A program made the position numbers and the translations under genes. The notes below the pieces were generated by a model that worked only from the letters and a program-made list of their open reading frames with translations, ran no database searches and was not told the DNA's origin. Shown here piece by piece: positions 4,701 through 58,700 of a DNA stretch of 60,000 nt. Source of the stretch: Lytechinus pictus (Eukaryota). Positions within the stretch are counted from its first letter, which is position 1. Each line of letters starts with the position of its first letter. The DNA is taken from positions 11,038,001 through 11,098,000 of the forward strand of contig NC_087245.1 in the NCBI RefSeq assembly GCF_037042905.1, in the 5' to 3' direction.

Positions 4701-7700
4701 AGTAATGAAGTACGGTCGCTTGGATCAAGACCTGAACCGATTAATAAGTAATCGTTTTTGTGTTCAAGCTCAAAGGAATGAATAATGGCCACTATTCTGG
4801 ATTCTTCTGGGCCAGATACAAGCCATTGCATTTGTGCTCCATTGGTATAGTTATCAGGAAAATTTGGGGAGACCACTGTCAAGGATTCGCCAATACCAAA
4901 TACACTGATTTCAGTTTCGTCTTCATGAACTTCGTCATCTGAAAAAAAAGATGAAAAAATATGATTTTTTTTTTTTTAAAGTGGGCAATGATTTGAATTC
5001 TTTGAGTTCAGGATGAAATATGCTCTAGATCCATGAAATAAATTGTTCCTGAAACCGACATTAACCCAGCCATAAAAGAGACTTACCTTCACACCAGAGT
5101 AGTCAATAGGCTGTTCAACCTTATGCTCACCTCAAAGCCAGACACAGGTGTGAGATACTGTCATCGGAGACCTGCTATTTGCACATGTTGCAGCTTTCAA
5201 ATCCTCTAAAACGCAGGAACTGAATACTCCGACGGAGATTTTTTTGAGATCTACAAAGACTTTTCCCCTAGTAGTCTGAATAAGACGAAAATATGACAGG
5301 GCCAGCTATCGCTTTTCATTGGTGACTAAAAGCTTGAAGCTGCAACTTAGTTTTGGTAAAGATCGCATACTTTTGGTAAACTATCGGCAACAACCTCTTC
5401 TCCCTCGATACATCATTCGTCAAGACATGCATAAAAACGCTCTCACTTAGCCACAACCGTCTCGGATAACGCTAAATTCTTGACGAAGATTAATAAAGGA
5501 TTTATGTGTCCTCTGTACTCTGTGCTAAACAAGATAAAATATAGAACGCCCATCTCATGGAATGACAAGATGCCAAACACACAGACGAGTCTATCTCATG
5601 CCGGTCTTCCAAGCAGGTTTATCTTCCTCAGACAACGTAGACGCCGCTGGATTAGCCATGCCCACTGTATGAAGAATGACATGACTCCTAAAGACTTTAT
5701 AACATCAAATTGTTCCTAAAACACCTTGCAACCGGCAAGAGAGAGATGTGATAAAAAAGGGTACGTATGCTGTGAGGGCCCTTTCATGCAGATTCACAAT
5801 CGTTAATTGTAACTCTGTCATTATATTGATTTTGACTTGCTGTTGAGCCTCGCTATCATGGTCGTTGCCATCATGACAAAGCTACAATAGTTGTAGCCAT
5901 TTAGATTACGTTAATGTACCGGAATGGCCACTTGAGAAAATTCCCACTGACCGCTAAAGTTGGCCAAGTATTTAAGACGTTGGAAGACCAAAAGAAGAGT
6001 GCAGCTGAAAAAAAGCGAGCCCGAAAAAAAGTTCCTGCTTGCACAACATACGGACAACCAAAAATAAAGACTTTATAGTACAGGGAGTGAATTAAGGGAA
6101 TTTGAGGGTGAAATTATATGCTCGCGATGAGCCATGGCCACAGCCATTTCCCATAGCCATGATGCCTTCCATGATTATTACAAGTAGTCCCTATATAATG
6201 ATACATGGAAAATTGTAAAATGACCATTGAAGTTGTCTTGTCATAAAACAGATCTTAATTCACATTTTCCGTACCCGAGATTGAAAACTGAAGTAAAGTA
6301 TAGCCAGATTTCATTATTAATGGAAATTACATTTACAGATCGATGAGATCATGAAGGTTGTACAAGCTTTGACTAGTGGCATCAAGATCTGAACAATGCT
6401 TTACAAAGTCACAGCACGATTCAGAGGGGGGGGGGGGGGGTTAGTCCCCAAATTTCTTTGAATAGTAATAGTCATCTGATTGTGATTTCCTACATGATCA
6501 GCATCCCTTTACTGCCATGCCTTCTTAATTCCACGTCGATTTGGTAAAACTATGACACAACCTGAACGTCTTTTTTATAAGGAAAAAAACTAGGTCATGA
6601 CTTTATCTCATAATAATTCACTCAGTCTTGCCCCTACACTTGAGGATTTCTTTGTTTACGTTGAAAAGTTTACAAAATTCCAGTTTGCTCTTATTCAGAT
6701 CACATAGATACACTCACACAACACCCACCCACACATTCCACACGTGCGCATACCCTCACATGTATAGACCTTAAACCTTATACCACGATGGACATGCCGG
6801 ATAAGGTCGTTCCCCTGGTTTGGCGAAACAATCCATTATTTATTTTTTTTGTTCAGTTAAGACATGTCCATGATCATAGTCATGATACTATTTAAGATAC
6901 TACTAAGAAACTATTTCATAGTATTTGCTTACCTTCATTATCTGGAATGGAAGGTTCTGATGGAAATGAGCAGATGGGGATATGTGGAAGAGAGAGTGAT
7001 AAATAGAAATGTCGAAAGCATTAGGCCTACTTAATACAAAAAAGTCATTCATCACGCGTGCTATACTGCATATTAGAAAGCAATTTTGAAACATATTTTG
7101 ACACTGATTGATATTTAATTTTGATCAGAAAGTAAATTTCATTATCTTCTCAATCTGTTTCTAAAGACTCTAGTCACACTAAAAGCTGAAGTAGCAGTCA
7201 TTGGTGATCGATGCAAGGTCTCACCTTAAAAAAAATTGTTCTTTAACATATTCGGATGTTATTCTCGAATCAATGTATCAAACAGTGAAGCTAATTGGTC
7301 ATCACATAGTTCTTTTAGACATTCAATAGAACAATTAGATTGTATTGGAGGCAGAATAGAAATTCCATGCACCCTCAAAACATTGCCAAATGATACGGGA
7401 AGTTAGCCGGGAAGTTAGTTATTTTCAAACGATTCAGAGGATTCAAAGAGCTTGGGTAAATCAAAAGCAATATTCCTTTTTGAAGTTCCCTCCCGATTGT
7501 TCCCTGCATTTTGAAATATCACTGTATTGGTTGAATTCTGATTAATTCCTGCCAACTAAAACTCAAACAAGGGGAGGGTTCCTTAACGAAGTTCAACATT
7601 GTGAATAGAAACCTCACCTTCGTATCCCATGGTATCCTTAATCCACTCTGTGTATTTTGAAATCCTGGCATAAACTCCTGGGTAATTTGGCTCAGCACAT

Positions 7701-55700: not shown

Positions 55701-58700
55701 ATGGCGGTTTGGACAATCGTGGAAGTGGAGCACCTGCTATTTCTCTTTTCGCCGACTCAAGCCAGCCTTCTGTCACCTCTCAGCTTTCCACTCCTGGTTT
55801 ACAGTCCTTTTAAGAACTACACTCATTTAAAAAAGAATACTGTACTTTTAAACCTCGACTTTCTTGCCTTTCCCATTTACGTGCATTTCTATCCACTTTT
55901 CATATTTGAGTCCCTCAAAGGACTTTACACATGGTGTAACGTAAACTACTTCCGCGATTGCTTAAAAAGAATGTTTTGATTTGGTACAGAGATAACAAAA
56001 TGACGAAAAAGATAATTTGGCAACTCGGGGGTTTCAGCTCCCTCAGATGGAAGAACTTAAGAAGAGCTAGGTGGGTCTTGAATGGGATACCAGATACTGA
56101 CATAATAAAAAAAATGAATGAAGAATTATTTTGCTGAAAAAAACATAAGATTAGAGTGTACATACAAAGACACCTCCAAATGAATCGAGAGGAAGGGGAG
56201 AATAGTACATCCAAAATGGTACATTAATTAATGCAACACGACACATATTTCAACTGTGATTTCTCCTCAGAATTAAACAGAGACGGGTACAGAAAATTAC
56301 CATTCCTTATTCATATAATCGTAGAGAAGGTACGTATCATATAGTCCTACTTGAAAATATTCCCTCCGTCAAGACTCTAACAAACATCCTCATAGTGCTT
56401 GGAATTCATATAACTAAAGAACAATATGAAGGCAATAAATCATCCCCACATCCATCGTGTCCACCAATCTACCTTCTTATGGAAAATGAATGTGTGCATT
56501 CAAATATTCAAGATTCAAGTCACGAATAATATTTTAGGTCAGGCAATCTTTGAGTTGAACCACGGTGAAACGCAACGTGAGATGGTCAATGTGTTCGTTG
56601 AAATCAAAGTTAATAAACCGTTACTAGGTACCGCTGCACATGTTTATTACCCTACTCTACCAAATAAATCACTGGCAAATACTTACGCGCAGTGAGCTGC
56701 AGTCAAGATCCATTGGTTACTAATCAACGTACCACCACAAAAGTAACCTCCCATTTGAACAGTAGCGATCCAAGGGAATTCCCCTAGATCAGCATCAACT
56801 CCTCCAACTATTCTAGAGTTGTAATCATCAATAGCTGGACGGGTACCGCATGTAGCTTCATTCGTTAAATCTGTAGTATAATAAGAAAAATTAAAATGCC
56901 TTAATATAGCTGGACAAAGAAGGCCTATAACTGCTGGAGGTAGTGATTTCAAACACATCTTCATCTGAATTAGTGACAGTACTTATTCAAGCATGACATT
57001 TTCTTCTTACCTCCTTCTCCGCCATTACAGTATGTCTCTTCAACATTCCCTTCATCACTTAATTGGTTGCAATCAATGGGCCAGTCTTTATCCATCAATA
57101 TGGTGTAAGATACTCGACATGCATCTGTGACTTCCTCACAGAGTGCCTTACAAGGGCGTCTTGAAGGACCTCCATGGGGACAGTCAGCAAAAAGCATACC
57201 ACATAAGAGAAGCAGAAAGTCTTCATGACATTCTTCCATGATGGTTGTTTCTTCGATCAAACTGATTGCAGTATCACGGTCTTGGGATGATGGGTTTGGG
57301 AAGTAAGTCCGATCGTAGGAGAGTACTGCTTCACATCCTGAGAAATTGATATCACTGCATTGGGCTGTACAAAGATAAGATAATCATTATGCGATCTTCT
57401 TTTACGTTTTTCTATGAAAATTCGGCATATGATACAATGTTCTTCTGTTCCCCCGTTTACAAGATGATTCGTGTTCTTGTGGGAAGACTAAGATGAAAGA
57501 CCGATGAAAGAAATCGATATTGCTGTATAACGAAGTACATTGGAATTAACAACAAGTGGTATTGTAAATAAATCAGTGAGTGTCATTGTTCAACTTACGA
57601 CATGAATCTTCGTCGGAAAAGTCGGCACAATCATTGTCACCATTGCATACATCATCAGATTCCAAACACGTCCCATCTCCGCAAGTGAAGTAACATTCAT
57701 CGGTAGAATCATCTGATGTGAAATATGAATTGGTAAACATTGGTAAATCCAATAAGTTTGGAAAAATTTCCAACATAATCATTGTAAATTTTTTGGTTAA
57801 TTGACGATTTGTTTGCTAAAGCACACCATTAATTGTTTCTCAGAAGTGTTTTACAGGGCATTAATATTCATAGAAGTTTAAAGGTATCTTAATGGTAATC
57901 AAGAAAATCAGAAATCCTTTTACGTTGGTTTTATATTGGACAGAAAAAATCAATGTTACGAAGAATCTCCTACTCTTCAATATATTTGTGAAAAAGTAAA
58001 AAAAAAAGGCATATACTGAAATATCATCACTATTTCACGACAAATGATAATCTATGACTGTATTGTATTTTTGGAAAAGTCTTTTACACGGTATCAACAT
58101 TCAATGAATTTTAAAGGTGTCTTAAAGGTTTTCCAGAAAATCAGAAATCCTCTTACGTTGGTTTTATAATGTCCTGAAAAAAAATCAATGTTCCACTGAA
58201 TCTCTTATACTCTTCAACATATTTGTGAAATACTGAAATAGCATTATTACTTTTTTACTACAAATTATAAATAATGAATACAGCGATAAATGTTTCCATT
58301 TATTTCTCAACTTACGACATGAATTTTCGTCGGATGAGTCTGCACAGTCATTTACACCATTGCATACATCATCAGATTCCAAACAGGTCCCGTCTCCGCA
58401 GGTGAAGTAACATTCATCAGCAGGATTATCTATCATGAAATGTGAAATACGATAAAATGTTCATTGTTAAAAATGAGGGCCTTTTTCTTTTACTAGATAC
58501 ATTCCCCTTTTCCGTTTTAGATAGGTCTTTATAAGATATCAAAGCTGTGTGACTTTCACCCCTTTCGAAATGTCCTAAGTTTAGGAAATTACGGAGTACC
58601 CGTTTTTTATACTTGGTTTTACCTTAAACATAAGTAATTAAACTTCACACTTTGCAAGTTTGAAATGGCGCAAAATTCTATGACCAAGCTAGTTCCATCC

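Follow-up and report, generated by a model that had tools for sequence, protein, structure and literature searches.

Gene structure

The 60,000-nucleotide stretch of Lytechinus pictus DNA analysed here (the window) carries on its minus strand a polyprotease gene segment of 56 exons (1548..59680), open at both window ends. All 56 exons are preceded by AG and followed by GT, their phases are compatible, and exon mapping after a six-frame scan joins them into a frame of 4,038 amino acids with 0 stops. This frame encodes six complete and two partial trypsin domains, every one preceded by (CUB)n-LDLa-Frizzled, and Pfam confirmed Trypsin, Fz, Ldl_recept_a and CUB domains for 11 of the 11 exons tested. 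Amino acids 1-1748 are identical to XP_063951986.1 and amino acids 1793-4038 to XP_063951985.1, with 0 mismatches in either. In the L. pictus RefSeq annotation, the window gene corresponds to two adjacent models, LOC129255053 and LOC135153396, with 9 + 4 = 13 protease domains. The motifs of each domain are spread over four exons, and any claim about a domain therefore depends on splicing; the introns rule out a bacterial-style single ORF. The exons join into one spliced multi-protease chain, the splicing being predicted, and the repetition of motifs within an open frame far exceeds what chance would produce.

Exon mapping orders the segment as follows along the minus strand. First comes the final exon of a protease domain that starts further upstream (59518..59680; the sixth of 13 by RefSeq's count), followed by a type B cassette, LDLa-LDLa-Frizzled-protease (52896..58429; protease exons 56870-52896). 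A 24-nt linker micro-exon of 8 amino acids (52213..52236), present or absent in RefSeq isoforms, then leads to three CUB exons that are cysteine-free in the joined frame and match Pfam (48139..49966). A type A cassette, LDLa-Frizzled-protease (43467..46448; protease exons 45622-43467, also seen by Pfam), precedes a second LDLa-LDLa-Frizzled-protease cassette of type B (37301..42199), where LOC129255053 stops because its donor is read through to a stop. Beyond a long intron lie a second copy of the micro-exon (27148..27171) and a second set of three cysteine-free CUB exons (23348..25170), in the first of which LOC135153396 begins at an internal Met. They are followed by an LDLa-Frizzled-protease cassette of type A (18946..21926) and two LDLa-LDLa-Frizzled-protease cassettes, one an A/B mosaic (14185..17685) and the other of type B (7618..12919). 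A third copy of the micro-exon and cysteine-free CUB triplet (3334..6956) precedes the last LDLa-Frizzled-protease cassette, a more diverged type C (1548..2692); only its first protease exon lies in the window, and the RefSeq model supplies the rest, making this the C-terminal domain.

Blocks of 5-6 kb in the array are 96-98% identical, as would be expected had the number of cassettes been inflated by an assembly error that placed haplotypes in tandem. This explanation is very unlikely. The linker-CUB block occurs in three nearly equidistant copies (96.7-97.5%) with different insertions, a pattern impossible from two haplotypes; type A and type B cassettes differ at a dS of ~0.18; and the S. 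purpuratus models hold 5-6 cassettes of their own. The dN/dS ratio is 0.07-0.28 in 15 of 15 pairs of Frizzled-plus-protease units, which therefore are under purifying selection.

The enlarged intron

RefSeq splits the gene at a 10.1-kb intron enlarged by a LINE insertion. Without its two insertions it matches a 660-bp intron whose two other copies RefSeq splices, and its splice sites are intact. The larger insertion, 8.5 kb on the minus strand (28436..36941), is flanked by a perfect 7-bp duplication (36948-36942 / 28435-28429). It holds LINE endonuclease and RT frames on the sense strand (36960-34042), as well as two 15-bp minisatellites in inverted orientation (28883-29317 and 33825-34373). 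The smaller, 0.95 kb with no strand assigned (27261..28208), has 6 of 7 bp of its duplication and a 162-bp tandem repeat.

The two RefSeq genes, with their boundary at this intron, raise the alternative that no single transcript covers the 13 cassettes. Transcripts would then end early at stops and polyadenylation sites within introns, chiefly at the sense LINE, so that chains would be shorter, or the downstream four cassettes would be silent or separate. Read on past its donor, each of the 7 protease-end exons indeed meets a stop 6-11 codons further on; the intron that follows each of them has A[A/T]TAAA hexamers, although these are frequent in these introns anyway, at 1.48 per kb elsewhere. 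Scored with a matrix built on 16 donors and ranked against 3,390 GT sites, four of the seven protease-end donors lie above ~97%, two above 91%, and one, at 62%, is weak. Several transcripts nonetheless appear improbable: the split intron is a spliced intron with additions, the downstream model begins in mid-CUB at a Met that provides neither signal peptide nor anchor, and the downstream cassettes hold dN/dS ≤ 0.28. A related candidate, an array of separate single-cassette genes, is rejected: the 10 introns after protease or linker exons contain 8 hydrophobic ATG frames, and 0 of the 10 introns offers a signal-peptide-like exon with a phase-1 donor. A search of short transcript-derived proteins for the protease-to-LDLa junction gave no echinoderm fragment among the 120 of 575 matches listed, all of which are vertebrate TMPRSS9 or unnamed TMPRSS9-like proteins.

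The protease domains

A preliminary description of this DNA had proposed that each domain is preceded by TCG-x10-R|IVGG and carries an S1 pocket with Asp189 (GGVDSC), Gly216 (SWG) and Gly226 (YPGVY), along with Cys122 (RPACL). All of these features are borne out in the six complete domains (minus strand, 56870 to 7618), whose activation motif reads TCGTRPA[I/V]DDY[N/H]SR|IVGG. These domains begin their first exons at 56870, 45622, 40859, 21100, 16343 and 11580, and each has His57, Asp102 and Ser195. In the second unit, for example, the codons lie at 45602 (pro-Cys), 45566 (P1 Arg), 44751 (Cys122), 44309 (Asp189) and 43623 (Ser195). The partial domains extend beyond this interval, one as a last exon (59680-59518) and the other as a first exon (1731-1548) whose activation motif is MCG-x10-R|IVGG instead of TCG.

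Conservation extends to the whole gene and to a second urchin. The catalytic triad lies in the AAHC, DIAL and GDSGG motifs of trypsin-type S1A proteases in 13 of 13 L. pictus domains. Across the 18 domains of L. pictus and S. purpuratus, all retain the triad, the Asp189/Gly216/Gly226 pocket, the pro-Cys, Cys122 and an activation site of the form DDY[H/N/Q]SR|IVGG, within the general pattern Arg/Lys|IVGG. Asp189, Gly216 and Gly226 confer Arg/Lys specificity by established chemistry, and the heads are predicted to be trypsin-type enzymes of this specificity. The catalytic domains are strongly acidic, with a pI of 4.3-4.8 and a net charge of -11 to -21 per domain.

Activation of the zymogens

Self-activation of the heads is plausible. 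A P1 Arg combined with an Asp189 pocket would allow self-cleavage and does not demonstrate it, and cleavage in cis and in trans would look alike at the sequence level. Contact between Asp194 and His40 is a mark of zymogen structures (PMC4418343), and His40 is missing in 18 of 18 urchin domains, replaced by Tyr in 13, Phe in 4 and Ala in 1, but retained in 3 of 3 human TMPRSS9 domains and 15 of 15 anchovy domains. This loss favours a leaky zymogen and can be compensated by another residue (Arg73 in FXII). TMPRSS2 offers a precedent, with trans-autoactivation that starts from weak zymogen activity (PMC12794319).

The acidity of the heads, the Asp-Asp at P6-P5 of the activation peptide and a 91-102 loop that has no basic residue in 17 of the 18 domains listed from the two urchins (a His in one) may slow self-cleavage. 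The first two lend some support to a chained polyprotein that does not activate itself, its DDYxSR sites being cut by a separate trypsin-like or convertase-like enzyme. Xenopus ovochymase is switched on by a separate, trypsin-like protease, according to a passage in PMC13079451, and cross-activation is known among TTSPs, TMPRSS13 acting on TMPRSS2. Such a separate activator is considered unlikely, given Asp189 pockets that suit the P1 Arg and the absence of His40 in all 18 domains, along with the very high local concentration of heads that tethering would give.

Cysteine wiring and the fate of the chain

Each mature protease domain has nine cysteines, its pro-segment one, LDLa six, Frizzled ten and CUB none. 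This count leaves the pro-Cys and Cys122 without a standard partner, and the two are therefore predicted to pair. The same bond holds the catalytic domains of TTSPs attached (PMC4161349, PMC12794319). The preliminary description had further proposed that the activated product stays a covalently linked chain. Its topology is right, in that, after a cut at R|IVGG, the fragment carrying domain n also bears the pro-Cys of domain n+1; disulfide protection is not uniform along the chain, as the CUB triplets have no cysteine. Nor is the wiring a special design. It is the default of two-chain S1A proteases, is found in 3 of 3 human TMPRSS9 domains and fits 60 of 121 multi-domain S1 proteins sampled. 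Passages of two papers had already proposed disulfide-linked polyserase chains, with an interdomain disulfide after cleavage (Cys28/144 and Cys296/402, PMC1435904; section 2.7, PMC11172050). In the former, polyserase-1 is nevertheless described as freeing independent units, and since its wiring is identical, such wiring is no guarantee of a chain.

Inter-domain linkers contain 0 Lys or Arg in 170 residues not spanned by disulfides, an absence that is statistically weak because only some six different linkers are repeated in this set; one linker in S. purpuratus carries a Lys. Of 148 Lys/Arg-X sites, 71 are spanned by no disulfide; CUBs account for 51 of them and protease domains for 20, and outside the protease fold the SP-LDLa-Fz-SP links leave no basic site unprotected. 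The cysteine-free CUB triplets are thus the likely break points of the chain, as far as its residues can tell. Under reduction, fragments of 49 and 87 kDa are predicted, glycosylation not counted. An AlphaFold2 prediction for the two-protease S. purpuratus model P0004 (pTM 0.41) places both protease domains and the three cysteine-free CUBs with confidence. Linkers and activation loops are of low confidence, as expected of beads on a string, and LDLa and Frizzled are poorly modelled.

Break points of this kind could also serve a delivery package, in which the activated precursor is cut further in the CUB triplets, a mucin exon or the SEA domain to release enzymes with a single head or two to three heads. 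The 51 unspanned sites in CUBs devoid of cysteine, the SEA domain of S. purpuratus, which lies close to the anchor and has a GSIIV-type motif, and the release ascribed to polyserase-1 are all in keeping with it. SEA domains can self-cleave. Against it, the CUBs are predicted with high confidence to be compact beta-sandwiches, so that the cut sites may be protected, and the SP-LDLa-Fz-SP links would resist for want of exposed basic residues. Such a package is judged quite unlikely.

In the preferred reading, favoured by a modest margin over even chances, the protein is an anchored multi-head zymogen. Its heads, cut at DDYxSR|IVGG and probably activating one another, would then be tied by pro-Cys/Cys122 bonds. 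One membrane-anchored zymogen would display its heads behind LDLa-Frizzled stems, with or without three CUBs, from an anchor and SEA domain encoded upstream of the window, as in the S. purpuratus orthologue. The first active head would cleave the DDYxSR|IVGG sites of the others, and autocatalysis would proceed mainly from head to head, in trans or within a flexible chain. Cut heads would stay joined by their pro-Cys/Cys122 disulfides. The SP-LDLa-LDLa-Fz-SP links would be covalently robust, and nicks in the cysteine-free CUB triplets would yield pieces with two to three heads.

Comparison with known polyproteases

The anchor absent from the window and from the 5'-truncated L. pictus models is found in the S. 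purpuratus orthologue, LOC578975 (P0012), which has a cytoplasmic tail, a hydrophobic type II signal anchor near 128-160, a SEA domain (Pfam 1.4e-06) and five such cassettes. With LDLa, CUB and Frizzled in the window and SEA in the orthologue, the stem modules are those of TTSPs. Human polyserase-1 (TMPRSS9) shares the type II anchor, SEA, LDLa (by Pfam) and tandem S1A domains, and all three of its domains have the pro-Cys, Cys122, R|[IV]VGG and Asp189; this wiring recurs in 103-105 of 105 three-domain orthologues per domain. The differences are as clear. TMPRSS9 has three domains, the third inactive (full triad in 0 of 105), against 13 intact in the urchin; its linkers are short, whereas each urchin head stands behind a repeated LDLa-Frizzled-(CUB x3) stem; it keeps His40; and its units are those said to be freed. 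The urchin protein falls outside the TMPRSS9 orthology group (TM-SEA-LDLa, three adjacent domains, third inactive), since all 13 of its domains are intact and every one stands behind a Frizzled-containing stem of its own. Polyserase-2/-3 and the insect polypeptidases also have several S1 domains per chain, but only two to three, often inactive homologues or without an activation motif, and they are secreted and lack a Frizzled/LDLa/CUB cassette repeat.

Two single-headed proteases resemble one cassette. Enteropeptidase (TMPRSS15) has a type II anchor, a SEA/CUB/LDLa stem and a disulfide-tethered trypsin-type head (PMC13012022), and corin a type II anchor, Frizzled, LDLa and a similarly tethered head (PMC4161349). 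In a PDB sequence comparison, enteropeptidase is represented among the top matches by chains 3W94 and 7WQX (E 5e-61 and 2e-60), on a par with plasma kallikrein. Each of the two has one catalytic domain, whereas the urchin repeats the whole stem-plus-head cassette in tandem. A domain search found neither MAM nor SRCR in urchin proteins P0047 or P0048. This excludes enteropeptidase itself (SEA-LDLa-CUB-MAM-CUB-LDLa-SRCR, one catalytic chain) and, with one Frizzled per cassette and many proteases, corin (two Frizzled, LDLa, SRCR, single C-terminal protease). Ovochymase contains CUB domains and is a chymotrypsin-like active enzyme that is not known to be membrane anchored, whereas all urchin heads are trypsin-type. 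A passage on the Xenopus protein (PMC13079451) and the title of Lindsay 1999 present a polyprotease with a trypsin-like activation cleavage, as predicted for the urchin protein.

Function and significance

Judged by architecture, the best guess for the role of the protein is a surface protease comparable to enteropeptidase, probably on the gut lining, with many trypsin heads per anchor. A bolder version is tentative and rather doubtful: a chain of >8,400 residues, anchored and self-igniting for lack of His40, would turn into a covalent filament in which LDLa-Frizzled and CUB modules separate 13 active heads. Cassette skipping and lineage-specific expansion would set how long this filament is, and it would act as a multivalent polymer at the cell surface.

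The surprise lies in scale and architecture, not in a new mechanism. The wiring is textbook S1A chemistry, as in human polyserase-1, and the gene is modelled, unnamed, in RefSeq; its scale, the integrity of all domains, the K/R-free linkers and the cysteine-free CUB triplets as likely break points are new. In the passages cited above, the choice between chained and released polyserase heads was raised for human and insect proteins of only two to three domains. The urchin gene is an extreme and clean test case, with near-identical intact heads, Lys/Arg-free linkers and two predicted fragment sizes. Should the chain hold, the urchin would have a natural protease filament, multivalent and self-igniting, and this would help explain why stem-plus-head cassettes expanded in echinoids inside one gene and not as separate genes.

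The literature searched describes neither this gene nor any polyprotease purified from a sea urchin; six of the gene and protein identifiers of this and the other giants match 0 papers, the enzyme name 'SUPase' has 0 occurrences, and passages of PMC4880809 and PMC9265791 proved irrelevant. Those giants include Diadema antillarum XP_071498050.1, a RefSeq model among the closest systems, and anchovy LOC134466782, which has 15 domains, 14 of them intact, with the same pro-Cys/Cys122/R|IVGG wiring, but as bare protease repeats without the stems of the urchin gene. Like the L. pictus and S. purpuratus proteins, both are named 'uncharacterized' in RefSeq. In the tree, grouping by species is only moderately supported (88/99 and 83/87).

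Gene structure and cassette order

The DNA is eukaryotic and intron-rich (GC ~0.37), and a six-frame scan reveals trypsin motifs repeated on the minus strand, the frame shifting between occurrences. A search of the window with 12 exon types, from which three degenerate CUB-like intron matches below 80% identity were discarded, mapped 56 exons, all 56 with AG and GT flanks. Under predicted splicing they join into a frame of 4,038 aa with no stops, open at both window ends. Its order of LDLa, Frizzled (Fz), CUB, linker and trypsin-type serine protease (SP) modules is (protease end)-LDLa-LDLa-Fz-SP-link-CUBx3-LDLa-Fz-SP-LDLa-LDLa-Fz-SP-link-CUBx3, continuing as LDLa-Fz-SP-LDLa-LDLa-Fz-SP-LDLa-LDLa-Fz-SP-link-CUBx3-LDLa-Fz-(SP start). 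Pfam supports all 11 exon types tested, and the six complete protease domains, or heads, share 93.2-100% pairwise identity.

The 24-nt linker micro-exon (52236-52213, 27171-27148 and 6956-6933, minus strand) is included or skipped in RefSeq isoforms. The CUB triplets (49966-48139, 25170-23348 and 4938-3334, minus strand) comprise nine exons, all without Cys codons. The intron after each linker micro-exon holds a degenerate CUB-exon remnant (51623-51255, 26837-26466 and 6593-6225, minus strand; a partial match at 72-78% identity), the putative trace of a lost fourth CUB. The cassette at 17685-14185 (minus strand) is a mosaic, its front resembling type B (LDLa-LDLa-Fz-SP) cassettes and its protease exons type A (LDLa-Fz-SP) cassettes (dS ~0.09-0.10 to both types), a pattern pointing to unequal crossover among cassettes or to conversion. 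A palindromic, repeat-rich, MITE-like insert (47300-46850) in the intron before LDLa occurs in one copy only and leaves a gap in the self-alignment.

Identity of the locus

The window Frizzled exon matches an S. purpuratus model at 84%, and that model's cluster includes a 4,329-aa, six-cassette protein (P0005). A long-protein search (35 matches among 870 candidates) led to L. pictus LOC129255053, with nine protease domains, and LOC135153396, with four. The window model shows 0 mismatches to XP_063951986.1 (aa 1-1748) and to XP_063951985.1 (aa 1793-4038), which identifies the window as the LOC129255053/LOC135153396 locus. With the two models joined, the locus totals 13 protease domains and ~8,436 aa, the N-terminus still being absent.

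The RefSeq gene split falls at a 10,129-bp intron (37300-27172) and is most likely an annotation break. This intron equals the 660-bp intron of two other copies plus insertions of 8.5 kb and 0.95 kb; the two short copies are spliced across in the RefSeq models, and the downstream model begins within a CUB and has no signal peptide. The 8.5-kb insertion is a LINE (36941-28436, minus strand) that runs in the same sense as the gene, is bordered by an exact 7-bp duplication and has sense LINE frames and an (ATCA)n-type tail; it could truncate transcripts. Its RT frame contains a stop (35371-35373), and near 34373 a further element breaks into it, one whose inverted arms are 15-bp minisatellites (28883-29317 / 33825-34373).

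L. pictus isoforms in RefSeq vary in the 8-aa linker, one CUB and an 801-aa exon, while S. purpuratus isoforms vary by one 420-aa cassette; RefSeq isoforms of this kind are usually based on transcript evidence. The 801-aa exon is Thr/Ser-rich and mucin-like, and in some L. pictus isoforms it lies between protease domains 4 and 5, upstream of the window (aa 2252-3052 of the L. pictus model P0045). The gene is modelled in RefSeq without a name. The literature search returned no publications under its gene or protein identifiers and no description by topic, some subscription papers (e.g. Hildebrand 2023) lying beyond its reach.

One reading frame or several transcripts

Genome sequence and RefSeq models predict that the cassettes are joined in one frame in life, a reading favoured by the uninterrupted frame and by the same joins in the S. 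purpuratus orthologue. Against it, each protease-end exon can continue past its donor and meet a stop within 6-11 codons. A single frame is further favoured by the introns, of which none of ten held a first-exon candidate, by the donors and by dN/dS. Among 3,390 GT sites, the protease-end donors rank at percentiles 96.6-97.3 (four of seven), 91.3 (two) and 62.2 (one). All 15 unit pairs have dN/dS of 0.07-0.28; three CUB pairs, with few changes, have 0.44-0.57. Haplotype duplication was rejected, as the three linker-CUB blocks are about equidistant (96.7-97.5%).

Cysteine wiring and the predicted chain

The preliminary description assigned each domain a TCG-x10-R|IVGG activation site, Asp189, Gly216, Gly226 and Cys122. 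All of these, with the catalytic triad, are present in 6/6 complete domains; the seventh domain start (1731-1548) has MCG for TCG. Directly ahead of this last domain, a 30-nt, AG/GT-flanked phase-1 segment (1860-1831, minus strand) looks like the opening stretch of the first protease exon; it is absent from the RefSeq model, and splicing it in would place an extra Cys beside the pro-segment Cys (pro-Cys).

Each mature domain has nine Cys, the pro-segment one, LDLa six, Frizzled ten and CUB none. The disulfide pairings of S1 domains, LDLa and Frizzled modules are standard, and with these counts they leave pro-Cys and Cys122 as the only unpaired Cys. Predicted cleavage at seven IVGG sites yields six fragments of 451 aa (49 kDa) or 792 aa (87 kDa), each with the pro-Cys of the following head at its C-terminus, as had been proposed.

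Whether the activated product stays one covalent chain, as was further inferred, is predicted to depend on the region. Between the first and last activation sites there are 148 Lys/Arg-X sites; if the disulfides are the standard ones, 71 of these lack a spanning bond, 51 in CUBs and 20 inside protease domains. Linkers contain no Lys/Arg in 170 residues, a weak figure because they are copies of about six types. This distribution suggests that SP-LDLa-LDLa-Fz-SP links should be robust and that a break in the chain would likely fall in the CUB triplets, which lack cysteines. Given splicing, we judge it quite probable that covalent units of at least two to three heads persist. An AlphaFold2 model of P0004, a two-protease S. 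purpuratus protein (45-row alignment; mean pLDDT 76, pTM 0.41), folds the CUBs confidently as beta-sandwiches, with linkers, activation loops, LDLa and part of Fz all below 50. CUBs with few or no Cys are found in related echinoderm proteases as well.

Wiring in other polyproteases

The chain and activation mechanism is known chemistry, previously proposed for polyserases; new here are the scale, the intactness of all heads and the repeated Frizzled-containing stem. Publications state the catalytic-domain tether of TTSPs (PMC4161349; PMC12794319), say that cysteines would keep polyserase-3 domains joined after cleavage and describe polyserase-1 as giving off independent units (Cal et al. 2006, PMC1435904), and assume interdomain disulfides in Tenebrio polypeptidases (PMC11172050).

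Pro-Cys/Cys122 wiring is common among multi-domain S1 proteins. In 149 top phmmer matches, a sample excluding the window's own protein (P0013), biased to multi-domain proteins and possibly including fused models, 121 have at least two full domains. Their non-first domains number 197, of which 122 combine pro-Cys, Cys122 and P1 Arg/Lys, and in 60 of the 121 proteins the wiring is that of a self-compatible chain. Human TMPRSS9 has the wiring in 3/3 domains; of 119 orthologues examined (120 listed), 105 have three domains, wired in domain 2 in 105/105 and in domain 3 in 104/105.

An anchovy model with 14 intact domains is wired like the urchin gene. The vertebrate models P0014, P0015, P0017 and P0327 include ones with 12-15 tandem S1 domains, from anchovy (14/15 intact), gar (mostly inactive) and spadefoot toad, as well as a 5,350-aa model from a wrasse. 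Polyproteases of great length may have originated on several occasions; the vertebrate models may also be fused gene models.

Possible self-activation

P1 Arg is compatible with Asp189 in 18/18 domains of both urchins, which also keep the activation peptide CGTRPA[V/I]DDY[H/N/Q]SR. None of these 18 domains has His at position 40, where Tyr, Phe or Ala stands instead; 3/3 TMPRSS9 and 15/15 anchovy domains do have His there. The Asp194-His40 contact stabilises the zymogen, according to PMC4418343, which also describes FXII as lacking His40 and apparently using Arg73 instead; the missing His40 is thus a lead only. TMPRSS2 is described as activating itself in trans, starting from a zymogen whose activity is very weak (PMC12794319). 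Against self-activation, the heads are acidic (pI 4.3-4.8, net charge -11 to -21) and face Asp-Asp at P6-P5; ovochymase requires an external trypsin-like enzyme, as stated in PMC13079451. From sequence and analogy, and given splicing, self-activation of the urchin heads seems somewhat favoured.

Orthologues and role

At its N-terminus, S. purpuratus LOC578975 carries a cytoplasmic tail, followed by a hydrophobic anchor and SEA, and orthology thus predicts that the L. pictus product is a type II transmembrane protease too. Models from Diadema, sea cucumber and starfish also contain CUB-LDLa-Fz-SP cassettes, and there the number of full protease domains is 1-4. A 31-domain tree places the first domain of L. 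pictus alongside domains 1 and 2 of S. purpuratus (95/91), while later domains form single-species groups that are moderately supported (88/99 and 83/87), a pattern suggesting that the arrays expanded separately or were homogenised. The best PDB sequence matches to the protease are plasma kallikrein and enteropeptidase, whose CUB2 binds macromolecular substrate according to PMC13012022. Our best guess, from architecture, would be a digestive or zymogen-activating role at the gut surface.
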